Assembly: GCA_021811805.1 (NCBI GenBank)
Contig: JAKAQA010000001.1
Span: 533 to 64,532, forward strand
Direction: 5' to 3'
Source of the DNA: a bacterium
Lineage (GTDB): Bacteria > SZUA-79 > Acidulodesulfobacterales > Acidulodesulfobacteraceae
DNA: 64,000 bases
Each line of letters begins with the position of its first letter. The stretch's first letter is position 1. A program made the translations under genes and the position numbers. Shown piece by piece: positions 2,343-43,234 of this stretch. The notes under the pieces are model-generated. The model was not told where the DNA came from, ran no database searches, and worked only from the letters and a program-made list of their open reading frames with translations.

Positions 2343-4154
2343 CTAAACTTCTATAATCTCATTTTTATAATAAGTCAGCAGACTTCTAACCGGAATATGC
2401 ATGCCGACTCCAAAACCGCATAAGGACAAGTATTTCATGGATTCCAGAATCTCGTCTATTATTTTTAAATTTTCTTCGGTATTTTGTTTTTTTAAAATCC
2501 TTTCGGACAGTTCTTTTACTCTCACCGTCCCTATTCTACATGGGGCGCATTTGCCGCAGGATTCGTCTATAAAAAAATCAAGGGAACTCAAAAGCCTGTA
2601 TTTAATATCCATCGAATCATCGAAAACGACGATGCCGCCATGACCTAAAATACCTCCTTTTTCGAATACGTCTTCATAGGAAAGCTTCAAATCGAGGAAC
2701 TCGCCGCTTAACGGAAAATATGCGCCGAGAGGCCCGCCTATCTGAACGGTTTTTGCAGTTTCGTCTGCCTCGGCAAGCTTTAAAAGTTCCCTCAGAGTAA
2801 CACCGAAAGGCAATTCAAAAATTCCGGGGTTTTTAACCGCTCCCGAAACCTGAAAAGGCATCGTGCCCTTAGAATTTTCCGTACCTAAAGATAGAAAATA
2901 TTTTAAATTTGAATTATTGTTAAAAATATAAACGGCATAAGCAAACGTCAACACATTATTAAGAACGGTAGGCTTCCCGTATAAACCGCTTACCGCCGGA
3001 ACCGGAGGTCTCTGCCTTACCATTCCCCTTCTGTTCTCGATGCTTTCCATCAATGCTGTTTCTTCTCCGCAAACATAGCTGCCTCCGCCGACTATTAAAT
3101 TAATATCGAATTCCAAGCCGGAACCTAAAATATCTTTGCCGAGATAACCAGCCTTTCTTAATAAATCGATAGCGCTCTCGACTATAAACTTAGCCGTTGC
3201 ATATTCCGCCCTTAAATAAATAAAACCTGATTTAGCTCCTGCTATTAAGCCTGCAATAACCATCCCCTCCATAACCGAGAGCGGGTCGTTTTCCAACAAA
3301 ATTCTGTCGGCATAGGCTCCCGAATCACCTTCGTCGGCATTGCATATTATATATTTATCTTTGGATTGTTCTTTGAAAACAGTTTCCCACTTAATGCCCG
3401 TTGGAAATCCAGCCCCGCCCCTGCCTCTGAGTTTAGAACGTTTCAGTTCATTAATAAATAAAATTTTACCTTCGTCTCCTGCGCTTTTAATTTCATCTAT
3501 GACTCTTTTTAATGCGCTAAACCCGCCTGCGTTTACGTAATCAAAGGAGGATAATGGATTTATATTACCGCACCTTTTAAATACAAGCAGTTCGCCATTC
3601 TTTACTATTTCGGACACATTCGCATCTATATAATTTTCCGGTTTTTTAAAATCGGCGGGATTAACGGAAACTAAATTCTTAATAGGCACGGAAATCATTT
3701 TTATTATTTCGTCGAATACTTCGGACGTAACTTTTTCATATAACAACCCGTCCACCATAACTGCCGGAGAGGCGGCGCAATGTCCGAAACAATAAACGTA
3801 ATCTAAAAAATATTTTCCGTCGGGACTGTATTTGCCGAAATCCAGATTTAAGCTTGTTTTTATATGTTCCAATAATTGTTTTGAACCAGCCGCTTCACAG
3901 CTTTCAGACTTGCAGACGACAATTTTATGATAAATCTTATTATCTGCGGCATCCGTTTTATAATTTCTAAAAAAACTTAGAAAACCGTAAACTTCAGCCT
4001 TAGAGATATTAAGGCTTTCGGCTACCTGCGATACGGCATCTTCGGGTATATAACCAATCTCTTCATTTATACCGTTCAATATATAAAACAAAGAGCCCTG
4101 CCCGCCTTTAGCTTCTTCGGTCAAACGCAAAATCAATTTGCCCTGCTTTTCCAT
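2343..4154 (-). CDS. NuoE-NuoF fusion flavoprotein (FdsG/FdsB-like NAD(H)-FMN-FeS diaphorase module)
   Basis: ORF track gives 2343..4175 from a TTG; the ATG at 4154 (MEKQGKLILRL...) is the more plausible start. The N-terminal part has a NuoE-type 2Fe-2S pattern (CKSESCEAAG ... CFGHCAASPAV). NuoF motifs GRGGAGFPTG (FMN/NADH site) and SCGKCAPCR (4Fe-4S) are present. Confidence 0.85.
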   Translation of the reverse strand: MEKQGKLILRLTEEAKGGQGSLFYILNGINEEIGYIPEDAVSQVAESLNISKAEVYGFLSFFRNYKTDAADNKIYHKIVVCKSESCEAAGSKQLLEHIKTSLNLDFGKYSPDGKYFLDYVYCFGHCAASPAVMVDGLLYEKVTSEVFDEIIKMISVPIKNLVSVNPADFKKPENYIDANVSEIVKNGELLVFKRCGNINPLSSFDYVNAGGFSALKRVIDEIKSAGDEGKILFINELKRSKLRGRGGAGFPTGIKWETVFKEQSKDKYIICNADEGDSGAYADRILLENDPLSVMEGMVIAGLIAGAKSGFIYLRAEYATAKFIVESAIDLLRKAGYLGKDILGSGLEFDINLIVGGGSYVCGEETALMESIENRRGMVRQRPPVPAVSGLYGKPTVLNNVLTFAYAVYIFNNNSNLKYFLSLGTENSKGTMPFQVSGAVKNPGIFELPFGVTLRELLKLAEADETAKTVQIGGPLGAYFPLSGEFLDLKLSYEDVFEKGGILGHGGIVVFDDSMDIKYRLLSSLDFFIDESCGKCAPCRIGTVRVKELSERILKKQNTEENLKIIDEILESMKYLSLCGFGVGMHIPVRSLLTYYKNEIIEV

Positions 4155-4194
4155 TGCGCTATATAATATTTCCAATTTTATATTATTTATATAA

Positions 4195-4353: not shown

Positions 4354-4869
4354 TTAAGAAGTTTTCAGCATATCCATAAATTTTAAAAATCCTGATATTA
4401 TAGCTTCCGGTTCGGGCGGACACCCTTTTATATTCATCGCGACCGTTAAATATTTTGAAACCGGACCGCATACCGAATAGGAATCTTTAAATGGTCCGCC
4501 GGTTTCGGGACAATCTCCCGCCGTAATCACAAATTTGGGCGCCGGAATATTTTCATAAGTCTTTAACAGCGGATTAAGCATATTTCTTGTTATACAGCCG
4601 GTTACCATAATAACATCCGCATGCTTCGGAGAAGCGACAAACTTTATGCCGAATCTTTCTAAATCGTAATAAGGGTTGGAAAGGGCGGCAAGCTCGTTTT
4701 CACAGGCATTGCAGGAGCCGCTGTCCACAAGCCTTACGAATAAACTTCTTCCAAATACCTCGTCAACAGAGCGCTTTAATTCATCTCCTTTTATTAAGAC
4801 AGAATCGCTATTGCCGCTAACAATACTTTGCGTCTTATTTTTAAATAATAATTTACTTAAAAATCCCAT
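4354..4869 (-). CDS. ehrS: Group-4 hydrogenase small-subunit / NuoB-like protein (HycG/HyfI-like), 4Fe-4S ligands retained
   Basis: 171 aa. Motifs DSGSCNACE, GDCPETGG and IKGCPPEPE match the four Cys of the HycG/NuoB proximal cluster. Confidence 0.85.
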   Translation of the reverse strand: MGFLSKLLFKNKTQSIVSGNSDSVLIKGDELKRSVDEVFGRSLFVRLVDSGSCNACENELAALSNPYYDLERFGIKFVASPKHADVIMVTGCITRNMLNPLLKTYENIPAPKFVITAGDCPETGGPFKDSYSVCGPVSKYLTVAMNIKGCPPEPEAIISGFLKFMDMLKTS

Positions 4870-4907: not shown

Positions 4908-6413
4908 TCACATATCGTTCCCTGAATAAGATAAATTAAGGCTTTTGTTTATCAAAGGAAAGTCGGCAATTATATTGCCCAATACGCCATATTGAATGGA
5001 CGGCCATATCCTGAACGACGGATCGATATATTTAAGCCTGAAAATTGTTCCGTCATTATCCGCCATAACATAGAAAAAAGCATTGCCCCTAGGCGTTTCA
5101 GAATTCCCCGCCGCATATTTATAAGCTTCCGGCCTATTTTCATAAGCAACGGCAATATCTCCTTTAGGTAAATTAAATAATAAATCGCCGATTATTTTCT
5201 TGGAAACGTAAATTTCTTTAATTCTTAAAGCCGTTCTTGCAAAAACATCTCCGCTTTCAAGTAAAACGGGCTTTAAATTAAACTTATCGTAAATCAGGTA
5301 TGGATACTCGATTCTAGAGTCCCGCGGCAGTCCGGATGCCCTCGCGCTTATTCCGCACAAAGAAAGCTCATCGGCCGTTTTTTTATTAATTTTTCCTGTA
5401 AATTCAAGCCTGTCTAAAACGGTCGATGAATTTACAATAAACGCTTCGCATTCTTTTATGTTTTTTTCGACTTTGTTAATCATATTATCTATGGCCTTAA
5501 GTTTTGAAGAATCAAGGTTGAAATTCACGCCCCCCACGGTTAAGACATTAAACAAAAAACGGTGTCCAGTCAAGCTTTTGTTAAGTCTCATTAATTCTTC
5601 CTGTAATGCAAATAGGCTCTGCGCAGGCAGAGCAAAACCGATATCCATAAAAATCCATGCAACATCTCTGACGTAATTCCATATTCTTTCAAGCTCTGCG
5701 AGTATTACTCTGATATATTTAGCCCTTTCGGTTACTTCAAGGTTTAAAATACTTTCGACGGCCTCAAGATAGCTTATGGTAATATTTACGTTATTGTCTC
5801 CAGAAATCTTTGCGACTAAATCCAGCGCTTCTTTGAAGTCTTTGCCTTCGCAAACTTTCTCTATTCCCCTGTGTTTCCAAAAATGTCTTATTTCAAGCTG
5901 TAAAACCGGCTCCCCCGCAAGCGAAAACCTGAAATGCCCAGGTTCTATAATTCCTGCATGCACCGGTCCGACAAGTACTTCAAAAATTCCTTCTCCCAAA
6001 ACCTTTTTAAACTTATATTCGCCGTATCTCTTCATTTCGGGAATTGAATTATTATAATCCTTTCTTAAAGGATGAAGAGAGGAATTCCAGTTTTCGGGAT
6101 ACAGCATTAAAGGTCTTAAGTCGGGATGTCCGTCTGGCGTAAGCCCGAATAAATCGTATATTTCGCGCTCATACATTTTGGCTGCCGGACAAACTCTAGA
6201 TATAGATTGAAAACTTTCGTCGACTTTGACTGAATATTCGTCTATACTGTTGTTACCGCCGAAAAAATACCTGATGCCAAATTTAGAATTTAAGCTTCTC
6301 TCGTCTGCCGCGGCGATACCAAGCAGATATTTTCCAGACCCTTTGAGATTATCCGCCGAATTTACAAAATCGTTTGATTCGATAATATGTTTGTTAATCA
6401 AAATTTTATCCAT
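4908..6413 (-). CDS. ehrL: NuoC-NuoD/HycE-like large subunit lacking all [NiFe]-binding cysteines (Ehr-type)
   Basis: 501 aa. NuoC-like YEREIYDLFGLTPDGHPDLRPL and hydrogenase-like GPVHAGIIEPGHFRF and HRGIEK are present. The N-terminal CxxC motif is AKISGDNNVNI (nt 5781-5813). The C-terminal DPCxxC motif is SLNLSYSGNDM followed directly by the stop (nt 4908-4943). Confidence 0.85.
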   Translation of the reverse strand: MDKILINKHIIESNDFVNSADNLKGSGKYLLGIAAADERSLNSKFGIRYFFGGNNSIDEYSVKVDESFQSISRVCPAAKMYEREIYDLFGLTPDGHPDLRPLMLYPENWNSSLHPLRKDYNNSIPEMKRYGEYKFKKVLGEGIFEVLVGPVHAGIIEPGHFRFSLAGEPVLQLEIRHFWKHRGIEKVCEGKDFKEALDLVAKISGDNNVNITISYLEAVESILNLEVTERAKYIRVILAELERIWNYVRDVAWIFMDIGFALPAQSLFALQEELMRLNKSLTGHRFLFNVLTVGGVNFNLDSSKLKAIDNMINKVEKNIKECEAFIVNSSTVLDRLEFTGKINKKTADELSLCGISARASGLPRDSRIEYPYLIYDKFNLKPVLLESGDVFARTALRIKEIYVSKKIIGDLLFNLPKGDIAVAYENRPEAYKYAAGNSETPRGNAFFYVMADNDGTIFRLKYIDPSFRIWPSIQYGVLGNIIADFPLINKSLNLSYSGNDM

Positions 6414-7883
6414 TTAAAAAATTATCTTGCCTCCGAATTCATAAGATGCCGATTTTACAATATTTAAAAATTGGGAAGGAATATAAAATAACAATAAAGA
6501 AGAAACCAATAAGAGAATTAACGGGACATATATCATAAAAGGGTGCGCCGCATTTTCGCTTTGGAGTTCATCTGCTCTTTCGTCGCTATCGTTGTTCCCC
6601 GCGTACATTTTAAGAATCTTGCCGAAAAGTCCTATAAAAATAAAAATCAATAGGATAAAAACTAAAAATCCCAATATTATATTGCTTCTAAACACGCCGG
6701 TCATAATGTAAATTTCCCCCAGAAACATTGCAAAAGGGGGCATTCCGCTGATTCCCATAACTCCAAAAAGAAGCACGAGTCCGGTAATAGGAAAATTCTT
6801 AGACAAATTTCTTATTTTTTCGATTTTCCTTTCATGGGTGACCGCAAGAACGTTTCCGGAGGATAAAAACAATAATCCCTTATTCAAAGCATGAAAAAAT
6901 ATCTGGAGGAGGCTTCCTATAACGGCAATTCCTCCTATGCCGAAACCTAATGCGATAATACCCATGTTTTCCATCGAAGAAAATGCGAAAAGCCTCTTAT
7001 AATCGGTCTGTTTTATTATTGAAAAAGCTGAAACCAGAATAGTAAAAAATCCAAAACCTATTAAAAAATACCTTGGGTAATATATGCCTGCCGCCCCGTT
7101 TATCTGATAAAATCTTAAAATGCCCAAAAGCGCCGTATTAAGCAAAACCCCCGACAGTAAAGCGCTGACCGGACTTGGACCCTGCGAATGGGCATCCGGG
7201 AGCCAATTATGCATGGGAGCAAACCCGACTTTCGTCCCAAACCCAACAAGCGCAAGAATAAATGCAAGCATGAGAAAATTTTTGTCTAATTTCGAACCGG
7301 CATGCATAATATTTATAAAAGATAGGGATTTTAAGCTTTCGCCGTAAACCTGCGAAGTCGTGAAATATAGAATAACTATCGCAAAAAGCCCTATCGCTAT
7401 GCCCACCGAACACATAATGACATATTTCCACGTAGCTTCAAAAGATTCTTTGGTCCTATTGAAAGAAACCAATAAAGCCGTGGCCAATGTCGTAGCTTCA
7501 AGGCCTGTCCAGTAGATGCCTAAATTATTCGACAATATCGAAACCATCATACTGAAAACAAATAAATTTTTCCAGAAATAATAAAATTTGAATTTTCTTT
7601 TCGATATGCCGCCCGCTATTTCGGTTCTGACATATCCGAACGAATAAAATGCCACAAACAGTTCAAGGGTCGAAACCGTTATAAGTATGACTAAATTAAT
7701 ATAATCCATAAAGAAAAAACCGCCCAAAAAAATCGTAATGGAATTAAAAGACAGAGCGATTGCTACAACAGCGCAAAATACCAGAACGGATACCGCCAAC
7801 TGCAGATAAGCCATCCATAAAACATCGGCAAAAATTGAAACGATTAAAGCGGCGGCCGGAAGTATCAGTATTAATTCATACAT
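6414..7883 (-). CDS. Antiporter-like membrane subunit (HyfF / NuoN-M-like)
   Basis: 489 aa polytopic protein with the NuoL/M/N signature HNWLPDAHSQGPSPVSALLSGVLL. Abuts the large-subunit gene (its stop at 6414 directly follows that gene's start at 6413). Confidence 0.8.
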   Translation of the reverse strand: MYELILILPAAALIVSIFADVLWMAYLQLAVSVLVFCAVVAIALSFNSITIFLGGFFFMDYINLVILITVSTLELFVAFYSFGYVRTEIAGGISKRKFKFYYFWKNLFVFSMMVSILSNNLGIYWTGLEATTLATALLVSFNRTKESFEATWKYVIMCSVGIAIGLFAIVILYFTTSQVYGESLKSLSFINIMHAGSKLDKNFLMLAFILALVGFGTKVGFAPMHNWLPDAHSQGPSPVSALLSGVLLNTALLGILRFYQINGAAGIYYPRYFLIGFGFFTILVSAFSIIKQTDYKRLFAFSSMENMGIIALGFGIGGIAVIGSLLQIFFHALNKGLLFLSSGNVLAVTHERKIEKIRNLSKNFPITGLVLLFGVMGISGMPPFAMFLGEIYIMTGVFRSNIILGFLVFILLIFIFIGLFGKILKMYAGNNDSDERADELQSENAAHPFMIYVPLILLLVSSLLLFYIPSQFLNIVKSASYEFGGKIIF

Positions 7884-7909: not shown

Positions 7910-8527
7910 TTATACGGCAACATTTCTTCTCAGATTTAATATAAGAACGGACAATATAAGTATGCTTACAAAAAGGTCGAAAAGCACGCCTAATTCAACC
8001 AAAAGAGGCATTCCGTGGGTAATGCTGTTAGCCGCCAAAAAAATCGCGTTATCTATCGTCAAAAATCCTATAATCTGAGAAAATAAGGTTTTTCTTGTTA
8101 CCATAAGCATTGCCCCTATTAAAAATGTCGCAAGCGATATAGTAAACACAAAGGAGCCGAACGTTATACCGGTATTGATAATTTTTTGAGCTATCAAATT
8201 GGAAAGCAAAGTTAAAGAGCCTGCGAAAACAACCGCCTCCGGTATGCCTATATACATATCTATTTCTTTATCTATTTTAACCTTTTTAAGCGTTTTAAAT
8301 AAGAAATAAGGTATTAAAATAACTTTAAAAATTACCGTAATAACAAAAGACCCGTATAAATTTATCGAATTAAAATGAACGGCGCCCATTAAAATATAAA
8401 ATGCCAGCATAAGAGACTGAAAAGAATAAAGCTTTATTGCAAATTTTATAAAAGGCGAGCTTACGTTTAATACAACCGAAACAAGTATTAAAATAATAAA
8501 AAGTTCGGCTATTTTTTCCATTATCAT
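7910..8527 (-). CDS. Small polytopic membrane subunit (HyfE-like)
   Basis: 205 aa and very hydrophobic. It lies between the NuoH-like and NuoN-like genes, as hyfE does in hyf operons. The call rests on position and hydrophobicity only. Confidence 0.55.
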   Translation of the reverse strand: MIMEKIAELFIILILVSVVLNVSSPFIKFAIKLYSFQSLMLAFYILMGAVHFNSINLYGSFVITVIFKVILIPYFLFKTLKKVKIDKEIDMYIGIPEAVVFAGSLTLLSNLIAQKIINTGITFGSFVFTISLATFLIGAMLMVTRKTLFSQIIGFLTIDNAIFLAANSITHGMPLLVELGVLFDLFVSILILSVLILNLRRNVAV

Positions 8528-8563: not shown

Positions 8564-9544
8564 TTAAAATCCCCTTATCGATAAAATCATCGCTATTAAA
8601 GACAGCATAAAAGAAACCGAAAGCAGGTTCGGCACCCTGAACACCCGCATTTTAGGGCTAACTATTTCGACTCCGGCAATAAGAATGCACAAAATTATCA
8701 TCTTTAGAATGTAAACTATTAAAGACAAGGGGATTTGATAAATATTTACCGCCATATAAGGAAACAATATAAGGGACATTACGGTTAAAAAAACGGTAAG
8801 TTTCAAATAACTCCCGTATTCAAATAAACCAAGATGTTTTCCGCTTGCCTCTAAAATATTTGCTTCATGAAACATCGTAAGTTCAAGATGGGTTTCGGGG
8901 TTATCTACCGGAATCCTTGCGTTTTCGGATATGCCCACTATAAAAAGCGAGATAAACAGCAAAAAGGGAATAGCTATGGATACGGCGTCCGAATTAACGC
9001 CCAATAAAAATGCGTCTGCGGCTCCTTTCTGAATAAAATAAAAAATATCGGTTATTCTGCCCTGCTTTGTATAAATAGCAAGGGATATAAAAATAAATAT
9101 TAAAGATGGCTCCGAAAGAACGGTTAAAAACCATTCTCTGCTCGCCCCCAACCCACCGAAAGCGCTGCCCTGGTCCATTGCGTAAAGGGTCATAAAAAAC
9201 GTCGCGAGCGCAAGAGAATACGCTATTAATATTACGTCGGAGGATACGCCGAGTAAAGAATATCTGTAAAATGCCGGCAACATTAATAAAATAACAAGGT
9301 AGGAAACAAAAACGATATAAGGCGCAATCTCTGATATAAAAGTTGCATCTTTAGATAAAACAATCTCTTTTTTTAATAATTTATTAAAATTTATATAAAA
9401 CTGAAATATATTAATTCCTTTCTGTCCCCTTGCCCGCTGTTTCAATTTATGAATAAAACCCGCAAAAAAGGGTGCAAGAAGGATTATTGTAAAAAATTGA
9501 ATAATTCCTATTATCAAATGTTGAATATTATAATTATAAGTCAT
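8564..9544 (-). CDS. NuoH / HycD / HyfC-like membrane subunit
   Basis: 326 aa polytopic protein with PVDNPETHLELTMFHEANILEASG, the acidic loop typical of HycD/NuoH. Confidence 0.8.
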   Translation of the reverse strand: MTYNYNIQHLIIGIIQFFTIILLAPFFAGFIHKLKQRARGQKGINIFQFYINFNKLLKKEIVLSKDATFISEIAPYIVFVSYLVILLMLPAFYRYSLLGVSSDVILIAYSLALATFFMTLYAMDQGSAFGGLGASREWFLTVLSEPSLIFIFISLAIYTKQGRITDIFYFIQKGAADAFLLGVNSDAVSIAIPFLLFISLFIVGISENARIPVDNPETHLELTMFHEANILEASGKHLGLFEYGSYLKLTVFLTVMSLILFPYMAVNIYQIPLSLIVYILKMIILCILIAGVEIVSPKMRVFRVPNLLSVSFMLSLIAMILSIRGF

Positions 9545-9565: not shown

Positions 9566-11515
9566 TTACCTTATTATGAATATGTATATAATGAAGCAAA
9601 CAATTAACGATAAAAATAAATACCCTAAAGAAACATTTATATTTTGTGAATTAGCCGCTTTATTAAAAATTTCCGATACTTTTAAATATAATTTTTCTGC
9701 AGGAATATAAATATATTTTTCAAAAATATCATTAATTTCTTCGGTATAAACAGATTTAGACCTGAAATACTTTTTTACGTCTTTTTCAAAGTTAATCTCG
9801 GAAACTGAGGAATAAAAAGAGGAAAAAACTTTCATTATGCTTGACGAAAATCCGCCGCCGGAATACTGGGCTTTTGAATTTTTTTCGTCAAGTCCGCATG
9901 CCCATGTTTCGAATATTCTTTTTTTATCGGAAGAAAATAACTTGAGATAGAAAAATACTATCAATAAAACTGCCGCCAAAGCAATTGCTATTAAAGCCGG
10001 GGCATACAAAGAAAACGGGCGAGCGCTTATAATATGTACAGCCGAAAACGGATTTGAGTTTACCGTTCCACCCGTTAAATAAAATATAACGGCATTTAAA
10101 TTTGAAATTATTTGATAAGGATAAATTCCGATATAAATACACAAAAAAACCGGTATCGCGATTCCTATTCTTTCAATAATATTAGGTTCTATAGCATTTT
10201 CTGCATGAACCGTTCTCGGTTTACCTAAAAATGTAATCCCGAACAATTTTGTAAAAGCGGCTCCCGCTGCGGCTCCGCTTAAGGACAGAAGCGCAATGGC
10301 TATAATTGAAAAATACACCATATACAGGTTTCCCGTAAAGACCGAGCCTATCAATGAAATATATAAATACCACTCGCTTAAAAAGCCGTTTAAGGGGGGC
10401 ATGGCGGAAATGGACATTATGCCGATGAGGAACAAGATGGACAACTGCCGCATTTTTTTTGAAAGGCCGCCGAGTTTTTCCATATTTCTGGTATGCGTAT
10501 ATTTATCTATCAATCCCGAGCCCATAAACAGCGAACTTTTGCTTAAACCGTGATTTATTATATGAAGCAAAACCGCCAGCATTGCAAAGTATTCTATGGA
10601 TTTAAAATTCTCTGCCTTTGCCCAGTAGGAAATGCCAATCCCCATAAAAATTATGCCCATATTTTCAATAGTGGAAAATGCCAGCAATTTTTTTATATCC
10701 TTTTGCGCCATTGCATACATAATGCCAAGGAGCGCGGATAAAGCGCCTAAGACGAGAAGTATGATTCCAAGAAAAGGGGCGGATCCTGAACTAAAGACGA
10801 ATAAAAATTTTAAAATACCGTATATAGCCATATTTACCATAATGCCGGACATAATAGCGGATATATTGGCCGGCGCCACCGGATGGGCATAAGGGAGCCA
10901 CGTATGAAACGGCATAATGCCTGCTTTAATGGAAAATCCCGTTATTGCCGCCGCTAATATCATAATCCCGGCGGCGCCTTTATAATAGTCGAAAGAAAAG
11001 GATGAGGTTTTTAAATACAGCATAATAAAACCCGCCGTTATGAGAATAGTTCCTATATGCGTCATCAAAAAATACAAAAAACCCGCCTTCCTTGATTCCT
11101 CGCCTCCTTCATAAATAACCAAAAGAAAAGAAAAAATCGACATTAATTCCCAGAATATTAAAAAAGTCAGCATATCGTTGCTTATAGCAAGGATTATCAT
11201 AGACATTACAAAGAAAAAAGAATAGATAAACAGGGATGGTTTTTTATCGTATTTCTCTCCGTATTTTATTGAAAAAATAGAAATAAATATGGATATAGAC
11301 GATATAAATATTACGAAAAATAGGGAGAGAGCGTCAAATTTGAAAGAAAAATTTATAAAAGAGGATTGTATAATTAATTCGTTTTTAAAACCGTAAATGC
11401 TTAAAACCGTAAAAAATGCGGCGGACAAAATAGACAGACAATTAAAAAAATATCTATATATTCCTTTAAACTTAACCCACCCCCTTAATAAAAATACTCC
11501 GGCAAATAAAGTCAA
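9566..11515 (-). CDS. Antiporter-like membrane subunit (HyfB/HycC / NuoL-like), first gene of the cluster
   Basis: 649 aa with FHTWLPYAHPVAPANISAIMSGIMV. The only in-frame start is TTG at 11515, with no Shine-Dalgarno sequence. Confidence 0.8.
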   Translation of the reverse strand: MTLFAGVFLLRGWVKFKGIYRYFFNCLSILSAAFFTVLSIYGFKNELIIQSSFINFSFKFDALSLFFVIFISSISIFISIFSIKYGEKYDKKPSLFIYSFFFVMSMIILAISNDMLTFLIFWELMSIFSFLLVIYEGGEESRKAGFLYFLMTHIGTILITAGFIMLYLKTSSFSFDYYKGAAGIMILAAAITGFSIKAGIMPFHTWLPYAHPVAPANISAIMSGIMVNMAIYGILKFLFVFSSGSAPFLGIILLVLGALSALLGIMYAMAQKDIKKLLAFSTIENMGIIFMGIGISYWAKAENFKSIEYFAMLAVLLHIINHGLSKSSLFMGSGLIDKYTHTRNMEKLGGLSKKMRQLSILFLIGIMSISAMPPLNGFLSEWYLYISLIGSVFTGNLYMVYFSIIAIALLSLSGAAAGAAFTKLFGITFLGKPRTVHAENAIEPNIIERIGIAIPVFLCIYIGIYPYQIISNLNAVIFYLTGGTVNSNPFSAVHIISARPFSLYAPALIAIALAAVLLIVFFYLKLFSSDKKRIFETWACGLDEKNSKAQYSGGGFSSSIMKVFSSFYSSVSEINFEKDVKKYFRSKSVYTEEINDIFEKYIYIPAEKLYLKVSEIFNKAANSQNINVSLGYLFLSLIVCFIIYIFIIR

Positions 11516-11524: not shown

Positions 11525-11552
11525 ATTATAACAAATGTTTGAAAAATAGCAA
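11525..11552 (-). promoter_or_regulatory. Candidate sigma70-type promoter TTGCTA-16-TGtTATAAT for the membrane-complex operon
   Basis: On the minus strand the -35 TTGCTA is at 11552-11547 and the -10 TATAAT, with an upstream TG, is at 11530-11525. The -10 ends 9 nt before the TTG start. Confidence 0.35.
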
Positions 11553-11564
11553 GAAAAATTTTTA

Positions 11565-13197
11565 CCCCAAAATTGCCGATAGAAATTATTTGCTCCTATC
11601 CTGACCCCTGTTTAAGAGATTTTTTTAGGTAAAATTAATTTTTGGGACTAAAAAAAATAATTTTACTTTTTCCAAAAATTATCTTTTTAAAAAAGGGTCA
11701 TAATTCCACAATTTTATCAAAAAATAGTAGTTTTAAGACATAGTCTTCCCGCCGTTTTTCGAATATGCTAAAAATTGATACCGAAATCTATGCAAATATA
11801 AAACAGTTATCCCTCATACGTTCATAGAGTATAAGTTTATCCACGGTAGAAGCAATAAGAAGGACTAACCGCCTTCCGTGGTTTATCAGCCTGCCCGCTA
11901 TGTTAACAACGGACCATCTGATAGTTTCTATGGTTTTATTTCTAAATTCTTCGGGTAAGAGATGCAGTTTCATTATTACCGTAGTGTTATAGACTAAAAC
12001 TCCTACGGCAAAGAACAGGGCGTTTGCAAAATAATCTCCCGTAGGAATATCTTCCATGCCGAATCCTATTTTTAGCTCTTTTATTGCGTTTTCTATGGAT
12101 ACCCTTTTATTGTATTCATAGATTACTTCTTCTTTCGGGGTGTCTTGGTTAGTCGCTATAACGTGGTAGCAATAAGTATCTTGTTCAAAAAGCCCCGCCT
12201 CTTTTTTAATCCATTTAAGCGCGACTATTCTGAACGGATCTGATTTTTCCATGCAGTATATACTTTCCCCTATTAATCTGTCCGTAACAATGCCGTCCGA
12301 GGTTTTAAATTCCGACCAGTTATCTATTCTTTTAACCTGTTCTTTCATAGAAGAGGTTTTGTCGGCGGATATCGTAAAAGTAACTTTTTTTGACGTTAAA
12401 TATTCTATAACGCAGGAAGAATAGAATTCCGAATCTATGGACACGTGGGTTATTTTTTTACCGGAAAGATTTATGATATTAAATATCTCTTCTAAAACTC
12501 CTACCGTTGCGCCGGATATATTACCGTCTCTGAACTCGTGGAACAATATAATGGGAATTTCGTTTAAAGCGGCTATTATCGGTCTATAGCCTTTAAAACC
12601 CGTATACGATTTTACCGCATCGAATTTGTTTGCTTCTATCATCGTAGGATCTATAAAAAGGGTGTATTCCATATTTTTGTCTAAAGATAAAAGCCTTTTG
12701 TTTATTTCGTATATTACCTTTTTAAATCCGTTAAGACCCGTTTTGCCGAGTCTTCTTAGCCAGTCTCCGTATGTAGAAGAAGACGGGATTTTAATGCCGG
12801 CAAGCTCTGTAATGGTCGTATCGTTTATCAATTCTTTTAAATCTTCAATATGCCTGCCGCCCGAAAATAACATAAGCATTAACGGTATTATATAGAAGGA
12901 AGGCTTGTAGCCCCTGTTGGAAGCAGGAAGAGGCATATATTTGTCTATCAGTAAATCAACGTTTAGTTTTTTTAGCATTTCCGCATAAACTGCAACGCCA
13001 GACCTCGGAGTTATTTTTTCTTTCGTAATTCCCAATTTGAAATTTAATTGCATTTGTTGTAACATATTTATTAACCTCCTTTTTTATTTGTTTTTCACCT
13101 GACGGGTGAATATAATTAGCAATAATTATATCACTGAAAGACAGATAAATAAAGGAGTTTTTTAGTTTTTGGTTAAGTTTCTATCGGCAAATTACAG
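11565..13197 (-). mobile_element. Insertion sequence, IS4 superfamily (IS1380/IS701-like), about 1.63 kb
   Basis: A single transposase ORF is flanked by imperfect inverted repeats: AATTGCCGATAGAAA (11571-11585) and the reverse complement of TTTCTATCGGCAAATT (13178-13193). Exact tips are uncertain and no short target duplication was found. Confidence 0.7.
11788..13065 (-). CDS. DDE transposase (IS4 superfamily)
   Basis: 425 aa. Y-x2-R-x3-E-x6-K signature in YEYNKRVSIENAIKELK. DDE-region blocks TLFIDPTMIEA and VSIDSEFYS. Confidence 0.8.
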   Translation of the reverse strand: MLQQMQLNFKLGITKEKITPRSGVAVYAEMLKKLNVDLLIDKYMPLPASNRGYKPSFYIIPLMLMLFSGGRHIEDLKELINDTTITELAGIKIPSSSTYGDWLRRLGKTGLNGFKKVIYEINKRLLSLDKNMEYTLFIDPTMIEANKFDAVKSYTGFKGYRPIIAALNEIPIILFHEFRDGNISGATVGVLEEIFNIINLSGKKITHVSIDSEFYSSCVIEYLTSKKVTFTISADKTSSMKEQVKRIDNWSEFKTSDGIVTDRLIGESIYCMEKSDPFRIVALKWIKKEAGLFEQDTYCYHVIATNQDTPKEEVIYEYNKRVSIENAIKELKIGFGMEDIPTGDYFANALFFAVGVLVYNTTVIMKLHLLPEEFRNKTIETIRWSVVNIAGRLINHGRRLVLLIASTVDKLILYERMRDNCFIFA

Positions 13198-13217
13198 TTT
13201 ACAGAAAAATTTTTATA

Positions 13218-13387
13218 CCCAAATCCCGATTTAGGAAATATTTAATAAATTCTAATATTTCGTCATTGCGAGCGCAGCTAACCAATCTAAAACGAGATTG
13301 GTTAGCTGCGCTGGACTTCGTCCGCTGCGCTCGCAATGACATTATTAAGTAATCATATATAAATATTTTCAAAATCGGGATTTGGGG
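13218..13387. mobile_element. MITE-like palindromic element, copy A (GTCATTGCGAGCGCAGC hairpin cargo)
   Basis: Terminal inverted repeats CCCAAATCCCGATTTAGGAAATATTTA and TAAATATTTTCAAAATCGGGATTTGGGG. Nested internal hairpins at 13262-13340. Flanked by TTATA at 13213-13217 and 13388-13392. Confidence 0.75.
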
Positions 13388-15445
13388 TTATATTTTTTTA
13401 ACTTCTACCGAAGTCGAGAAAAATGTGGCGCCGCCGCCGATATCCGATAAATCGTCCGGCGTCAAAGCATTTACTCCCGAACCGTTTATATAATCGTCTT
13501 TCCACCATAAACCTGCAGAAACGACCACGCCGGGCAGTATGGAATCCAAAACCTTTGCTTTTATAGATACGCAACCGCGCTCGTTTTCAATCTTTACCGA
13601 ATCTCCATCGCTTATTTCCCTGTCTTCGGCATCCTTCGGATTAATTTCCAGAAAAGGCTCATGCGCTTTGACTTTTAGAGAGGAAACCCCTGCAAAAGAA
13701 GAATTTAAAAAATAGTGATTTGGCGGCGTAACGAGGATTAACGGAAAATCGGTTTCAGGCCGTGAACCCCCGTTTACATTGCCATGACTTAATATGCGCT
13801 CTTTTATAGGCTTGTAATCCGGTATATTTAAAAGTCCGCATAATGCGGCTTTTTCGCTCTTAAACTCGATTTGGCCTGAAGGCGTTGAGAGTTTCCTCCA
13901 TTCAAACGGGCAATCCCCCGTATTTATCATAATAAATCTTTCTTTTTTGAGCCTATCTAACGTTATCCCCTTTTCTTTCCAGTAAGGAATGTCTAATGCC
14001 TGACGCGCAATATCTTCTTCCGTATCTAAAAAACATTCGTCGGCGTAACCTAAAGAACGGGCAATGAGCTTAAATACGTCTATATTCGGTTTGGCTTCGC
14101 CTGCTCTCGGAATTACGGGGTCTGCCCATTGAAGCGAGGTATGCCAGTAGCTTACGTAAAGATCTGCATGTTCAAAACTCACGGTAGCGGGAAGTATAAT
14201 ATCCGCCCATTTTGCGGTATCGGTCATAGCCTGTTCATGAACTACGGTAAAAAGGTCTTCCCTTGCAAGCCCTTTAATGACCAAGTTTTGATTAGGAGCT
14301 ACTACGGCAGGGTTGCTGTTGTAAACATAGAGCGACCTTAAAGGAGGTTCAAGTTCGCACAGAGCTTTTCCAAGCTGAACCATATTTACCGTTCTGACCG
14401 GATTTTTAATTAAATCCGGTCTTTTTAAAGCATCCTCGTTTAAAGGGAAATATCCCGAATTAGATTTTAACGCCCCTCCGCCTTTGTCCAACCATGCTCC
14501 TGTTAATGCCGGCAATAAAGAAATCAACCATGTATTTACGCCGCCGTTTTTATGGTGCTGAAGACCGTTTCCTATTCTTAAAAAACTCGGCTTTGTTTCG
14601 GCGTAAAGCTTTGCCATGCCTTCTATGCGCTCTTTTGAAAGACCTGTAAGACCTGCAACTCTTTCGGGCGGATATTCCATTGCTTTTTTACGAAATTCGT
14701 CAAACCCGTATGAATATTTCTCTAAAAATGCTTTATCTGCCAAATGATCCCTTGATATAATATAAGCTATGCCCAAAGCCAGCGCGCCATCCGAACCGGG
14801 TAGAATCATGTAAAAATCGTCCGCCCACTTTGCCGTTTTATTCCGGTGAACATCTATGGCTATGATTTTAGCTCCGTTTTTGCGGGCCGCATCCGCCAAA
14901 ACAGCATGGTGCATATTTGTTTCTAACGCATTTATCCCCCAGAATATAATTAATTTAGAATTAGCCGTATCTAAAGGATTTACGCCTTTAGACGCGCCGT
15001 AAGCCAGCTGATAGCCTAAACTTCCTGCCGCCGAACAGATAGTGCGGTCAAGAGCCGTAGCGCCTATTTTATTAAAAAGACGCCTGTCCATACTAGATTT
15101 GTTAATTATTCCTTCCGTTCCGCCGTAAGAATAAGGCATAATGCTTTCGGAACCATATTTCGAAATAAGCTCTCTCCAGCGCCCGGCAATTTCATCTATA
15201 GCGCCGTCCCAGCTTATTCTCTCAAATTTACCGCTCCCTTTTTTTCCGGTTCTGCGCATAGGATAAAGTATCCGGTTTTCGCAAATACGTTCGGGATATG
15301 CCCTGACTTTTTCGCAAATGATCCCGCGGGTTACGGGATGCGAAGAATCGCCTCCTACTTTAACTATCATCCCATTTTCTACCTCTACTTTCAAAGCACA
15401 GGTATCGGGACAGTCGTGCGGGCAGACGGAATATTTTACTTCCAT
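13388..15445 (-). CDS. Molybdopterin-dependent oxidoreductase, MopB superfamily, cytoplasmic (no Tat signal); substrate unknown
   Basis: 685 aa. N-terminal 4Fe-4S pattern CPHDCPDTC...C. Typical MopB blocks (IIFWGINALETN, IIAIDVHRN). C-terminal beta-barrel domain (GDSVKIENERG). Confidence 0.75.
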   Translation of the reverse strand: MEVKYSVCPHDCPDTCALKVEVENGMIVKVGGDSSHPVTRGIICEKVRAYPERICENRILYPMRRTGKKGSGKFERISWDGAIDEIAGRWRELISKYGSESIMPYSYGGTEGIINKSSMDRRLFNKIGATALDRTICSAAGSLGYQLAYGASKGVNPLDTANSKLIIFWGINALETNMHHAVLADAARKNGAKIIAIDVHRNKTAKWADDFYMILPGSDGALALGIAYIISRDHLADKAFLEKYSYGFDEFRKKAMEYPPERVAGLTGLSKERIEGMAKLYAETKPSFLRIGNGLQHHKNGGVNTWLISLLPALTGAWLDKGGGALKSNSGYFPLNEDALKRPDLIKNPVRTVNMVQLGKALCELEPPLRSLYVYNSNPAVVAPNQNLVIKGLAREDLFTVVHEQAMTDTAKWADIILPATVSFEHADLYVSYWHTSLQWADPVIPRAGEAKPNIDVFKLIARSLGYADECFLDTEEDIARQALDIPYWKEKGITLDRLKKERFIMINTGDCPFEWRKLSTPSGQIEFKSEKAALCGLLNIPDYKPIKERILSHGNVNGGSRPETDFPLILVTPPNHYFLNSSFAGVSSLKVKAHEPFLEINPKDAEDREISDGDSVKIENERGCVSIKAKVLDSILPGVVVSAGLWWKDDYINGSGVNALTPDDLSDIGGGATFFSTSVEVKKI

Positions 15446-15464
15446 TTATTTAAACCCTCTTGCC

Positions 15465-15674
15465 TTAATGGATCCTTGAAAACCCGATAATTACCAATAT
15501 AATCATGGCAAGTATATAAATTCTCAAAAACCAGAAAGCTATTTGAATCCATCCTTTAACGCTGGCTCTTTCTACGGGAATTTTGTTATAATCTACCAAA
15601 CCTTCTTCTTTGATAAAATCTTCCCAGTCCTCGTCGAGATTTACCTTTTTTGAAATCTTATCTTCTATTTTCAT
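15465..15674 (-). CDS. Small protein with an acidic N-terminus and one C-terminal TM helix; function unknown
   Basis: 69-aa ORF packed between the Nramp-like and MopB genes on the same strand. TM segment IQIAFWFLRIYILAMIILVIIGF. No family recognised. Confidence 0.4.
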   Translation of the reverse strand: MKIEDKISKKVNLDEDWEDFIKEEGLVDYNKIPVERASVKGWIQIAFWFLRIYILAMIILVIIGFSRIH

Positions 15675-19185: not shown

Positions 19186-22100
19186 CTATATAACGCTTAA
19201 GAACTCGGCAATCACTCTAAAATCCGTTTCCGGCGCATTTTCTATGATTATCGGCTCAAATTCCTTGTTATCCGGAGATAAAACAATCCGTTTGTTCCGG
19301 CATGTTCCATCATCTAAATATTCTTTCTCGCTGTGATATCTTTTTACGGTATATTTCTGATTTGTTTCCCTATCGGCAACTTGTCTCGATTCTACCAAAA
19401 CGACGGCCCCGTTTCGGGAACCCCCTTTGTCAAATCTGAACGCACAATAGCTGCCGTCTGGAATAGCAGGCTCCATAGAACGACCCACGACTTTTGCAAT
19501 AAACATATCTTTATTAAGTTTCCTTCCTGTAATTTCAGCCCTCATCCAGCCCGAATTCTCGACATATTCTTCCTTTCCAAAAGCCGTGGCGGCGGCTTCT
19601 AAGGAATAAACAGGCAGGTATAGAGTGAACTTCTCGGCTTCATCAATTTCATAGCGCAAATTTAAATTTAATTGGTTGTAAAATTCTTTTACAAATATAT
19701 TTTTTTTATTATCATTGTAAAAAGGCATACCTATGAGTTTATACTCTTTGTTCTCGCTAAACAGCATATCCTCAGAGCTTAATTTATATTTTGCTCTAAT
19801 TTCTTTCAAAAAATCCTCTTTCCATTGGTCTTTAGGAATTAAGTGTTCTCCTTTAGATTCAATAAACAACTGGTATTGTTCTAATTTATCGGTACTGTCC
19901 TTTTTTAAAAATAATACAAAATCCGGTTCAGTCGGTCTCCCATCGGAAAAGTTATATATACTGAATAAACTTTCATTTCTTAAAAGATAAATGCCGGAAT
20001 AGTTTTTTTTCTTTAATTCATTTATGACTCCGTCAATAAAACGTATTAGCTGTTTTTCTTCAGAAGTTCCGTAATTTTCATTATATATATACCATTCTTT
20101 ATCCATTAATCTTAAATTTAACGATTGGGGGCTTTCGCTCATAGGCTTGCCATATTCCGCTTCGGAATATTCTCCTACATTTATTTTCAGATTTTTATCT
20201 TTCACGATTTCCTTAACCAAATTTCCCTTGAATAACTCTGTTCCTTTATATTCGGTAAATTCGTTTTTGATTTCTTTTTCTAATTGGCTTAAAACATATA
20301 TACAAATGTTTAGTTTTTCAAATGTTTCAATCTTATTAGATTTAGCCTCTGCCGCCGTTATAGTAACGCTTATCTCTTTTAAGGATTCAATAAAATCAGT
20401 CGAATTATTCAGGGAAGGAAAATATTCTTTTAGATTATTGAATCTATAAAAATCAAGTTTTGCCATTGTCTTTCTTATAACGGCATCCCCAAAGATTTTC
20501 AGTTTAATCGGCGGATTCGTAACAGTTTGAAATACACCGGGGGGTTCATATTCGGCTAAAACGGTAAATTCCCGAGTCATACCTGTCGCTAAATTATATT
20601 TATATGCTTTTGATATATTTATATCTTGCAATGTTCTTAATTTAGAGCGATCTTGTTTCTCCCTTTTGTTTATAAATATAAATGCATTATTCCAAAAATC
20701 CGATTTTTTTATCTCATCTTTAACTCTTAATTCAAGTTCCTTCGTTTCGTGAGGCATAATTCCGGCTTCTTTTAAGGCTATAGTTAATTCCTGAATATAC
20801 CTTGGGTTATTTACGCTATGATAATAAAGCTCTTCTATAATTTTAAGTTCATCTTCAGGCAGGTTATCAAATTTTCTTTTAAACGGGTCACCGGCGCTTT
20901 CAGATTTAAATGGATAATATCTCGCGCCCCTGCCGATTAATTGAGCTTCGGCTATTGTTGTTTTACCGGGCTTATTGCCCTTGGCATCTCTGGTATCATA
21001 TAGCCTGACAATATCAAATAGATTTAGTACATCCCACCCCTCATTTAACATATTTACTACAAATATTGCTCTTATTTCATTGTCTTCATTTTCAAGGGTG
21101 TTTAATTTTAACTGCTTATCTTTATTTATATTTTCAGAATCAAGAACAATGCACTTTTCTGAAGAAAAATCCTCTTTCAACTCCAAAATTAAATTTTGAA
21201 TAGCGATATTGTTCCTATTAAAATATTGAAAAACTTTCTCCAAAATCGTATTATTTGAATATTGCTCTATATTTTCAATATCTGCCGCTTTTAAGCCGTT
21301 AATTTTGTCCCTAAATAACTCATAATTTTCTTTTGATTCTTCAATGCTTCTGGATTTAAAAAGTATTACGGGCTTTAAATGCAGTCCGTTTTTTTCGGCA
21401 ATTTTCCTTCTATATTGGCTTAAAATCACGGCTTTTAACATTCTTTTCAACGCTTCCGAGTCTGACTCTAACACCTTTACTTCTTTAGAGTAGCCGTCAA
21501 TTCTAAATTGTTTAAGATCGTACTCGAAAATTATCTTCTCTTTGTATTTTTCAAAAATATTTGCATTGTTTATGTCAACCGTAGCGGTGTATTCAAGTAT
21601 AATATTATCCGAATTGCTGTTAAGAATGCTCGAAACGGAACCCTCCCATGTATCTTTCAGCTCCACTTCTTTTTTTCCTATAGAATGATTTCTTGTCCAT
21701 GTATTTATATGATGGGCTTCATCGGAAATCAGTGCAATCTTTTTATCGGCAAAATCCTCTATGGTGATAGAATTTTCCTTAAAAAGATTTAACTGGCTAT
21801 GGAGACCTTGAATTGTGGTAAAGATTATGTTTATATCATTTTCATTGGTAGCCTCAAAGTTTACGGCCTCATTAATGCCGACATTCCTGCCCTCGAATTG
21901 TATCTTATTGTTAAAAAGATATTTTGACGAAAGAGGATTTAAAAAGTTATCCCTGGTCTTTTCTATTATATTTACGCTGTTTACGAAAAATAAAAAATGC
22001 CTGTAACCAATGCTGTATAAATACAATATATTTGCGGCCATAAGAAGCGTTTTTCCCGAACCGGTCGCCATGTTAAACAATAACTGGATAGGCATGGATT

Positions 22101-22275: not shown

Positions 22276-22276
22276 T

Positions 22277-24250: not shown

Positions 24251-24351
24251 TTTTTAATATACCTTTTTAAAATTAATTTAAAAATAAATAATGATTAAAT
24301 TTTTTAATTATACATATTGTAAGTAAAAAATTAATTAGATACCAATTTTCA

Positions 24352-28492: not shown

Positions 28493-28514
28493 AAAGTCTC
28501 CTTTTTTATGAAAA

Positions 28515-28745
28515 TTAATATAGATGTTTGTGAACAGGGTCAAATCCGCCTTTAGAGAGCGGATTACACCTGATAATCCTATAAATAGACATGTATAGGG
28601 CCTTAATAAAACCGAACGACTCAAAGCATTCGACCGCGTATTCGGAACAGGTAGGATAAAACCTGCAGCTTTGGGGCAATAACGGAGATAAAAACTTTTT
28701 ATAAGAAATTATCAGCAGTATAAAAAATTTATTTAACATCTTCAT
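28515..28745 (-). CDS. yidD: Membrane protein insertion efficiency factor YidD
   Basis: 76 aa with CRFYPTCSEYA and the conserved position between rnpA and yidC. Confidence 0.9.
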   Translation of the reverse strand: MKMLNKFFILLIISYKKFLSPLLPQSCRFYPTCSEYAVECFESFGFIKALYMSIYRIIRCNPLSKGGFDPVHKHLY

Positions 28746-29068: not shown

Positions 29069-29087
29069 CTTAACGCATAAAACTTAT

Positions 29088-29237
29088 TTATTTAGAACTA
29101 ATTACCGGGACCAGTATTTTGCGCCCCTTTCTCCTGCGTCTCGATAAAACCAATCTTCCGTTCTTTGTGCTCATTCTGCTCAAAAAACCGTGGGTTCTTT
29201 TTCTCTTTAATTTACTTGGCTGAAATGTGCGTTTCAT
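29088..29237 (-). CDS. rpmH: 50S ribosomal protein L34
   Basis: Below the track length cutoff. My translation is [49 protein letters not shown], a textbook L34. Confidence 0.93.
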
Positions 29238-32476: not shown

Positions 32477-32480
32477 TTAA

Positions 32481-35317
<2,837 letters not shown>

Positions 35318-43230: not shown

Positions 43231-43234
43231 GGTA

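Follow-up and report, generated by a model that had tools for sequence, protein, structure and literature searches.

The stretch analysed here, called the window throughout, comprises 64,000 nucleotides (nt) of contig JAKAQA010000001.1 from a bacterium of the Acidulodesulfobacterales (assembly GCA_021811805.1). One of its genes, ehrL, is predicted to encode the large subunit of a six-subunit energy-converting hydrogenase-related (Ehr) complex, consisting of four membrane subunits and a two-subunit head formed by EhrL and EhrS. In this head a conserved polar pocket appears to have taken the place of the [NiFe] site. By homology EhrL belongs to the already described Ehr family and does not represent a new kind of complex. 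With respect to function, we consider it likely that Ehr is a redox-linked ion translocator without H2 chemistry, in which a low-potential cytoplasmic donor would reduce the EhrS cluster and the acceptor would be located at the interface between head and membrane.

The reading frame of ehrL is intact, running from an ATG start over 501 codons to a TGA stop at 4908-4910. Its translation contains the strings YEREIYDLFGL, GPVHAGIIEPGHFRF and HRGIEK, and Pfam assigns to it Complex1_30kDa (residues 12-121), Complex1_49kDa and a short NiFeSe_Hases match. Among PDB chains the top match was Escherichia coli HycE (7z0s_E, E = 1.7e-58, phmmer), followed by Pyrococcus furiosus MbhL (7.1e-39), Aquifex NuoCD2 (8.4e-39), Thermus thermophilus Nqo4 (1.5e-33) and MbsL (3.9e-25). 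Expressed in bits, HycE scored 202, compared to 137 for Aquifex NuoCD2, the best complex I chain, and 119 for T. thermophilus Nqo4. The AlphaFold2 (AF2) model of EhrL, with a mean predicted local distance difference test score (pLDDT) of 83, likewise had 7z0s_E as its best Foldseek match (template modelling score 0.90/0.85), the corresponding score for E. coli NuoCD being 0.85/0.74. By sequence and by predicted fold EhrL lies clearly nearer to HycE than to NuoD.

The phmmer alignment places KISGDNNVNI of EhrL under RVCGICGFAH of HycE and SLNLSYSG-ND under SLDPCYSC-TD. A profile of 29 EhrL family sequences gave the identical register (HycE, E = 2.4e-113) and aligned RMCGICSFSH of MbhL and RMDYLHSFAH of Nqo4 at L1. 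In the resulting residue map Cys241, Cys244, Cys531 and Cys534 of HycE correspond to Ser204, Asn207, Ser495 and Gly498 of EhrL (for HycE residue numbers, construct numbering equals native numbering plus 12). The last residue, Met501, aligns with Arg537, the final residue of processed HycE, so that EhrL carries no protease-cleaved extension. Four cysteines are present in EhrL (positions 75, 188, 322 and 353), none of them conserved in the family, and there is no CxxC motif anywhere in the protein. Displaced cysteine motifs were rejected on these grounds. A second or frameshifted large subunit as the true partner was rejected for the window as well, as tblastn of EhrL against the six-frame translation recovered only ehrL itself. 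The [NiFe] site is thus lost beyond rebuilding, with invariant Ser, Ser and Gly at three ligand positions and a variable residue at the remaining one, and EhrL is unable to ligate a NiFe centre. A first-pass annotation of this DNA had read the gene as a fused NuoC/NuoD-HycE homologue that lacks all four [NiFe] cysteine ligands and a C-terminal extension, with a small subunit that keeps its four cluster cysteines and no hyp/hyc genes in the window. It had proposed a profile alignment, and had named displaced motifs or a second large subunit as findings that would speak against its reading. The quoted strings, the HycE match and the agreement of phmmer alignment, family profile and residue map bear out the homology and the loss of the ligands, the L1 and L2 columns being non-Cys in the alignment with HycE, MbhL and Nqo4; its nucleotide positions for both motifs (Table 1) were correct, and EhrL ends where mature HycE ends. 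No maturation gene, Hyp and HycI families included, was found by Pfam among the 40 other gene-like open reading frames (ORFs) of at least 110 amino acids in the window, a set from which 11 long ORFs overlapping a longer gene on the opposite strand were excluded.

The best 120 matches to EhrL (42-97% identity) in a database of 5.8 billion proteins include Aquificota (Hydrogenobacter, Thermocrinis, Venenivibrio), Nitrospira, an ANME-2 archaeon and acid-mine metagenome-assembled genomes (MAGs). Across these homologues [RK]-[IV]-S-G-D replaces R-x-C-G-x-C, and the L1 and L2 cysteines are missing save in one protein with Cys at the first position; the full-length members terminate in S-x-[NS]-L-S-Y-[SA]-G-N-D-[LM]. 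Invariance of at least 97% was found at 83 positions of EhrL, among them Ser204, Gly205, Asp206, Ser495, Tyr496, Gly498, Asp500 and the segment Glu157-Arg162; only the position of the second L1 cysteine (Asn207) varies in the family, between T, N and H. The Nitrospira homologues carry the same replacement motifs at 43-45% identity. The ratio of nonsynonymous to synonymous substitution rates (dN/dS) of ehrL against eight close relatives was 0.06-0.15, which points to strong purifying selection.

The roles of individual residues were taken from the structure paper on the E. coli formate hydrogenlyase (FHL; PMC9474812). Glu193 of HycE, the proton donor in the beta1-beta2 loop, corresponds to Glu157 of EhrL (121 of 121 family members), the canopy Arg478 to Arg442 (117 of 121), and the proton-path residues Arg395 and Glu437 to Arg358 and Glu400. 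Asp206, a new invariant aspartate, sits two residues past the first former L1 ligand and ahead of the second. In EhrS the four cluster cysteines (CxxC...GDC...GCPP) are in register with HycG and MbhJ, as had been claimed for the small subunit, and all of them are kept in the eight Ehr small subunits compared, which come from four lineages; EhrS has the hydrogenase-type C-N-A-C where NDUFS7 has CC. For the NuoH-like subunit, residues Y102, E130, E138, E189, D196, E199, E203 and E206 of HycD are matched by Y109, E137, E145, E207, D214, E217, E221 and E227 of EhrB. In EhrA the Glu of transmembrane helix (TM) 5, the TM7 Lys, the TM11 His/His/Lys and the TM12 Glu are present, and the TM8 Lys position is Asn; EhrD, aligned to E. 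coli NuoL, has the TM5 Glu, TM7 Lys, TM11 His/Lys and TM12 Glu. According to these alignments the elements linked in the FHL paper to the coupling of redox chemistry and ion transfer (cluster, Glu, Arg, proton path, E-channel and antiporter residues) are retained.

As outlined in Table 1, ehrL is the fifth gene of a tightly packed minus-strand run, HyfB, HyfC, HyfE, HyfF, EhrL and EhrS in terms of homologues. The membrane subunits comprise two antiporter-like proteins, one NuoH-like and one HyfE/NuoK-like protein. EhrA matched Pfam Proton_antipo_M (3.4e-53), the NCBIfam model for hydrogenase 4 subunit B (4e-157, under the curated cut-off) and HycC in the PDB (8.4e-58), and EhrD matched Proton_antipo_M (2.7e-54) and hydrogenase 4 subunit F (1.6e-104, under cut-off). 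For EhrB, Pfam NADHdh (4.8e-30) and the PDB chains HycD (8.5e-21) and MbhM (2.9e-18) were found, and for EhrC the NCBIfam hydrogenase 4 membrane subunit (2.1e-19, under cut-off), the Thermocrinis orthologue of EhrC matching Pfam Oxidored_q2 (NuoK-like). EhrS matched Pfam Oxidored_q6 (8.7e-27), HycG (3.6e-34) and MbhJ (4.5e-33). The six-gene order is identical in Thermocrinis albus, Venenivibrio, Nitrospira and the bacterium of locus L019, and a short ANME-2 contig has the first five genes in the same order with no small-subunit gene called; the cassette is the conserved unit. A gene for a 2x[4Fe-4S] relay of the NuoI/HycF/EchF type was found neither between 4354 and 11515 nor adjoining the cassette in these five distant loci, the ehr cluster contains no NuoA or NuoJ genes, and none of the five loci shares a conserved redox partner gene beside the cassette.

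Table 1 Positions of the ehr genes and of other features in the window (aa, amino acids).
Feature	Position (nt)	Strand	Remarks
EhrA, HyfB-like, antiporter-like membrane subunit	9566-11515	minus	649 aa as listed; true start may be ~14-19 codons downstream
EhrB, HyfC/NuoH-like membrane subunit with E-channel	8564-9544	minus	326 aa
EhrC, HyfE-like small membrane subunit	7910-8527	minus	205 aa
EhrD, HyfF-like, second antiporter-like subunit	6414-7883	minus	489 aa
EhrL, fused NuoC + NuoD/HycE-like large subunit without [NiFe] ligands	4908-6413	minus	501 aa
Former L1 motif, AKISGDNNVNI	5781-5813	minus	EhrL residues 201-211 (nt 5813-5781)
Former L2 motif and C-terminus, SLNLSYSGNDM	4911-4943	minus	EhrL residues 491-501; stop directly after
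EhrS, NuoB/HycG-like small subunit	4354-4869	minus	171 aa; one [4Fe-4S] cluster with four Cys ligands; lacks a NuoI-like domain
NuoE-NuoF fusion, FdsG/FdsB-like diaphorase	2343-4175	minus	610 aa; neighbour, complex membership unproven
FdsA-type Mo/W formate dehydrogenase alpha subunit	1-2338	minus	first 779 aa; gene runs past window start
Insertion sequence	11570-13193		between Mo-oxidoreductase gene and first ehr gene; DDE transposase 11788-13065 (minus), Pfam DDE_Tnp_1_4
Mo-bis(pyranopterin guanine dinucleotide) oxidoreductase	13388-15445	minus	685 aa; cytoplasmic; N-terminal 4Fe-4S motif; no obvious twin-arginine signal
Low-GC island	19186-25374		GC 0.31-0.34; between mnmG and mnmE
Chromosomal origin region	26939-34955		yidC, mnmE (minus); dnaA 29557-31008, dnaN, gyrB (plus)
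2-Oxoacid:ferredoxin oxidoreductase gamma, beta, alpha; succinyl-/citryl-CoA synthetase-like pair; two-subunit class I fumarase	37605-44074	minus	

The name of the Ehr complexes goes back to Coppi (2005) and Marreiros et al. (2013), cited here after PMC7894505, PMC4758237 and PMC4378227. Known members (Geobacter sulfurreducens EhrA-D/L/S, GSU0739-45, PMC7894505; Sulfobacillus, Nitrospira and ammonia-oxidising archaea) share with the window a group-4-like large subunit without the cysteines of RxCGxCxxxH and DPCxxCxx[HR], together with a NuoB-like small subunit and NuoH-, HyfE-, HyfB- and NuoL-like genes in one syntenic cluster. The same motif loss was reported in 2014 for a syntenic cluster of six neighbouring genes in acid-mine Sulfobacillus (PMC4378227) and in 2023 for Nitrospira, whose proteins without CxxC motifs were called Ehr (PMC10284858), and for ammonia-oxidising archaea (PMC10432482). 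The sub-clade that contains the window protein and those of Aquificaceae has lost the L1 His in addition; otherwise there is no difference in kind. PMC6776010 and a 2025 follow-up, both on Ca. Acidulodesulfobacterales, were searched for hydrogenase, formate and complex I, and no mention of this complex was found. Group 4 homology, family-wide cysteine loss, the kept cluster ligands of the small subunit, the NuoH-like, HyfE-like and two antiporter-like genes in the same operon and the lack of maturation genes in the window support the Ehr-type, cofactor-less reading that the first-pass annotation had given. Its further description of such complexes as an intermediate between group 4 hydrogenases and complex I stands as a published proposal (Marreiros 2013, cited in PMC4758237) and not as established fact, EhrL being nearer to HycE.

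The loci of Riflemargulisbacteria, Saganbacteria and Melainabacteria described by Matheus Carnevali et al. in 2019 (PMC6349859) also have fdhA and nuoE-/nuoF-like genes adjoining an Ehr cassette, and the cassettes have fused NuoC-NuoD, HyfB, HyfF, NuoH-like and HyfE genes in common with the window. They differ in that NuoE and NuoF are fused in the window, where the linkage is also unstable among close relatives, and in that the NuoB-like gene of Margulisbacteria RA1A also encodes a NuoI-like domain (PMC6349859), whereas EhrS, with its 171 residues, has no ferredoxin domain. For each of the Ehr subunits tested (EhrL, EhrS, EhrB and EhrA), the E. coli FHL (Hyd-3/Hyd-4, HycE/HyfG; PDB 7Z0S) provides the closest relative of solved structure. 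Both complexes have the fused NuoC-NuoD large subunit, the Glu of the beta1-beta2 loop, the canopy Arg, the E-channel and, in the antiporter subunit, the TM12 Glu, but the window Ehr lacks the [NiFe] site, the C-terminal extension, the HycB/HycF relay and an FdhH-type partner, and has Asn for the canopy Asp529. The TM7 Lys, lost in HycC (Leu208), is present in the window antiporter subunit. Two antiporter-like subunits plus HyfE correspond to the layout of Hyf (Hyd-4). Where group 4 [NiFe]-hydrogenases have their motifs, R-x-C-G-x-C-x3-H for L1 and D-P-C-x2-C-x2-[HR] for L2, EhrL reads KISGDNNVNI and NLSYSGNDM. With the Q-module of complex I (NuoB/NuoCD/NuoH) the window Ehr shares the fold, one [4Fe-4S] cluster beside a metal-free pocket, the E-channel and antiporter-like subunits; unlike complex I, it is without Tyr87/His38, the canopy Asp, the tandem CC, and NuoI, NuoA and NuoJ genes in the cluster. 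The P. furiosus MBS/Mbx complex (PDB 6U8Y) was matched by both EhrL and EhrS, at a much weaker level than HycE for the large subunit (MbsL 3.9e-25 against 1.7e-58). MBS/Mbx, which reduces sulfane sulfur, is a group 4 descendant without H2 chemistry that keeps the proximal cluster and the ion-translocating arm; its membrane arm is different and larger, and it keeps a NuoI-like subunit. In contrast to it, no sulfur-related gene is linked to the window cassette. Taken by these comparisons, the window complex has each Ehr feature tested, and tests for the features that define group 4 hydrogenases or the quinone module of complex I were negative.

As a redox-linked ion translocator, Ehr would neither produce nor use H2. 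Because there is no NuoI/HycF relay subunit, a low-potential cytoplasmic donor, with ferredoxin or a docked iron-sulfur enzyme as candidates, would reduce the EhrS cluster directly. The electron would then leave through the Glu157/Asp206/Arg442 pocket with proton uptake and reach an acceptor at the EhrL-EhrS-NuoH interface, most probably a membrane quinone, and the movement of charge would drive H+ or Na+ transfer via the E-channel and the two antiporter-like subunits. The reaction could also run in reverse. Cytochrome bd quinol oxidase has been reported at order level for published Ca. Acidulodesulfobacterales genomes (PMC6776010).

Several points weigh against this assignment. The conserved cassette encodes no electron donor. 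The canopy Asp (HycE D529, NDUFS2 D458) is strictly conserved in hydrogenases and complex I, and its loss impairs quinone reduction in complex I (PMC9474812); its position is Asn493 in EhrL, and each of the 120 homologues extending to the C-terminus has Asn or Ser there (N 105, S 15, D 0). The positions of the quinone-ligating Tyr87 and His38 of Nqo4 are taken by Gly205 and Glu157, both family-invariant. EhrB resembles HycD and MbhM far more than it does any ND1 of complex I, which leaves a quinone tunnel hypothetical; together with the missing Tyr/His pair and canopy Asp, this resemblance forms the chief evidence against a quinone acceptor. The single-chain AF2 model has pLDDT values below 50 at residues 131-181 and 495-501, the regions that form the pocket. 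Furthermore, our literature searches returned no biochemical or structural study of any Ehr complex and no reported substrate, and papers from 2014 to 2023 called the function of Ehr unknown (PMC4378227, PMC10284858, PMC10432482).

Directly downstream of ehrS, after a gap of 178 nt in the window and on the same strand, lie a NuoE-NuoF fusion and an FdsA-type formate dehydrogenase (FDH) gene, both absent from the first-pass annotation, which make the layout one of FDH-Ehr type. The fusion matched Pfam 2Fe-2S_thioredx, Complex1_51K, SLBB and NADH_4Fe-4S as well as, in NCBIfam, formate dehydrogenase subunit gamma (2e-42) and the NuoF family (8.9e-112), both under cut-off. FdsA, whose orthologue in L005 has 994 amino acids, matched the alpha subunit of an NAD-dependent FDH (6tg9_A) with 910 bits, and its active-site motifs CARVCH and LRGQNNVQG are conserved. 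The two genes are predicted to encode a complete-looking, catalytically intact NAD-linked FDH of the FdsABG type, with Cys as the ligand of Mo/W. FdsABG-type enzymes are self-sufficient, soluble, NAD-linked FDHs. A promoter and terminator scan of the ehr-fds region gave matches no commoner than in shuffled sequence.

This neighbourhood invites the reading that FDH and Ehr form a supercomplex, in which FdsGB-FdsA would dock on the Ehr head and pass electrons from formate or NADH through the FeS chain of FdsA to the EhrS cluster and on to quinone; with FdsA, NuoE and NuoF as N-module, such an assembly would pump ions in the manner of complex I, driven by formate. FdsA has a 2x[4Fe-4S] ferredoxin-like domain that could take the place of the missing NuoI, the enzyme of the window is catalytically intact (Cys-His and Arg present), and ehrS, nuoEF and fdsA are co-oriented with gaps of 170-200 nt in the window, L001 and L002. 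Such a layout also underlies the published proposal for Riflemargulisbacteria and Saganbacteria (PMC6349859), and all Ehr subunits of Geobacter were more abundant on formate than in hydrogen-containing conditions (PMC7894505). The comparison with relatives, for which the window proteins were mapped onto 14 related loci, speaks another language. Although the FDH-Ehr layout is identical in L001 (97% identity) and L002, only two of the ten order-level loci with enough downstream sequence have FDH adjoining the cassette. In three (L005, L006 and L007) ehrS and nuoEF are 1.5-6 kb apart (2 kb in L007). The genes between them in L005 and L006 are unrelated, an HgcA/HgcB-like pair in L005 and, in L006, an ABC1 kinase, a MerA-like gene and an EamA transporter on the opposite strand; in the remaining five (L003, L004, L008, L009 and L011) no FDH was found within the 3-10 kb available downstream of ehr. 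Neither is FDH found beside the cassette in the six distant loci L014-L019 (Aquificaceae L014, Thermocrinis, Venenivibrio, Nitrospira, ANME-2 and the L019 bacterium). Self-sufficiency of the enzyme class argues against a need for Ehr as well, and an alternative docking partner exists: Ca. Acidulodesulfobacterales genomes were reported to have an 11-subunit nuo without nuoEFG (PMC6776010), so that NuoE-NuoF and FdsA may be the only NuoE/F/G-like proteins of the order and could serve this Nuo instead of Ehr. Since the linkage is not conserved among relatives, FDH is at most a facultative partner of Ehr, which weakens the published idea of an obligate one, and we regard the supercomplex as unlikely, though worth keeping in mind.

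Operation in the opposite direction was also weighed as the physiological role: Ehr would be the missing ferredoxin-reducing machine of microaerobic autotrophs with a reductive tricarboxylic acid (rTCA) cycle, a quinol:ferredoxin oxidoreductase that spends proton-motive force to lift quinol electrons to ferredoxin for the 2-oxoacid:ferredoxin oxidoreductases. If so, the EhrS cluster, exposed for lack of a NuoI cap, would hand electrons straight to ferredoxin, and the invariant Ser/Asp/Asn pocket would be a new quinol site of a non-Tyr/His kind. The nearest homologues outside the order come from Aquificota (Hydrogenobacter, Thermocrinis, Venenivibrio) and Nitrospira, lineages of rTCA autotrophs. 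Ca. Acidulodesulfobacterales carries and expresses rTCA genes (PMC6776010). The window itself contains a 2-oxoacid:ferredoxin oxidoreductase, a succinyl/citryl-CoA synthetase-like pair and fumarase, the EhrS cluster is probably open to direct docking of ferredoxin, and the cassette encodes no alternative donor or acceptor. However, Ehr also occurs in Geobacter, Sulfobacillus, ammonia-oxidising archaea and Margulisbacteria, which are not known to use this cycle. The cassette has no ferredoxin gene linked to it, the residues of the quinone site are lacking and the basis of the proposal is a taxonomic pattern; we hold it to be improbable. The lack of an encoded donor or acceptor module, together with the loss of both chemistries of the superfamily (NiFe and the Tyr/His pair for quinone), would suit a non-redox module, that is, an Mrp-like cation/proton antiporter whose hydrogenase-derived head is structural or regulatory only. 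The fixation across phyla of all four cysteines of the cluster, of the proton-relay Glu and canopy Arg and of the new invariant Asp would be difficult to account for in a head of purely structural function, and this reading seems very improbable to us. Scarcely credible, finally, is a decaying or misread hydrogenase, be it a pseudogene, displaced cysteines or a second intact large subunit. No supporting point was found for it, and pseudogene decay was rejected because the replacement motifs are shared by 120 homologues and dN/dS is low, to which the intact frame and the absence of CxxC and of a paralogue in the window are added.

Ehr is widespread, occurring in Aquificota, Nitrospira, Geobacter, Firmicutes, nitrifying archaea and candidate phyla, and lies between hydrogenases and complex I in sequence. 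The window locus adds a residue-level account of what such a complex keeps (FeS cluster, proton-relay Glu, canopy Arg, E-channel, antiporter residues) and what it discards (metal ligands, canopy Asp). This pattern bears on the debate about coupling in the complex I superfamily, in which quinone dynamics and charge movement alone are the competing explanations. Since the host is an uncultured acid-mine bacterium, the locus is no more testable than the Ehr of Geobacter, Thermocrinis or Sulfobacillus.

Some observations concern the sub-clade of the window protein. Outside the order its closest relatives come from Aquificaceae (54-58% identity), a hint that the ehr cassette was transferred laterally. 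Both have lost the L1 His (Ile211 in EhrL, nt 5781-5783), which is kept in 94 of 121 family members, and in the same clade Tyr247 replaces the equivalent of the proton-path His284, a His in most of the family. In Thermocrinis albus a true [NiFe]-hydrogenase operon (large and small subunits and an HdrD-like CCG/Fer4 protein; L015:325-5043) divergently adjoins the Ehr cassette, as does hypF. A cofactor-less and a cofactor-bearing relative are thus neighbours there.

An insertion sequence (IS), which does not belong to the Ehr system, lies upstream of the cassette, about 55 nt from where the first ehr gene is listed to start. Its terminal inverted repeats measure 16 nt (11570-11585 and 13178-13193), and 22-nt direct repeats flank it (11552-11573 and 13203-13224). 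Its insertion is recent, because it is missing from the 97%-identical locus L001. It cuts the ehr genes off from the Mo-oxidoreductase gene further upstream, and perhaps also from the promoter native to them. The Mo-oxidoreductase gene belongs to a block (13388-15674) in which it follows an Nramp transporter and a conserved 69-residue protein whose single hydrophobic segment probably spans the membrane, and which is syntenic in L005-L007 and L010. As an FdhH-like partner of Ehr the Mo-oxidoreductase was rejected: it is a generic enzyme of its class and no FDH, for its motif RTICSAAG has a Cys ligand with no His after it, where FDHs have C/U-H, and the gene is lacking in half of the related loci. 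An Rfam scan of the window gave zero matches.

The HgcA/HgcB-like pair mentioned above occurs at L005:12157-13514 and L008:19658-21012, with partial copies at the ends of L002 and L004, and is not in the window. The HgcA-like protein has a corrinoid domain with the cap-helix motif NVWCAAGK and a transmembrane C-terminal half, and the 2x[4Fe-4S] ferredoxin that comes after it has Cys-Cys at its end. In L005 this ferredoxin was considered as the missing NuoI-like relay and rejected; because it follows the corrinoid/transmembrane NVWCAAGK protein, the pair looks like HgcA/HgcB and not Ehr-related. The pair suggests mercury-methylation potential in acid-mine Acidulodesulfobacterales. The MerA-like gene of L006 (16204-17904) occupies the place equivalent to that of the pair.

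The closest related loci are MAGs from acid mine drainage, one labelled Candidatus Acidulodesulfobacterium and one Deltaproteobacteria. The gene cluster at 37605-44074, in which a small ferredoxin-like ORF also lies near 40213-40395, agrees with the report of an rTCA cycle in the order. In the origin region a 0.9-kb AT-rich gap (GC 0.28) precedes dnaA, and the cumulative GC skew has its minimum near 26 kb. The low-GC segment beside it is probably a horizontally acquired defence island, containing a fusion of a type III restriction enzyme with a Peptidase_S24 domain (1034 amino acids), a type III methylase and a RhuM-family protein.

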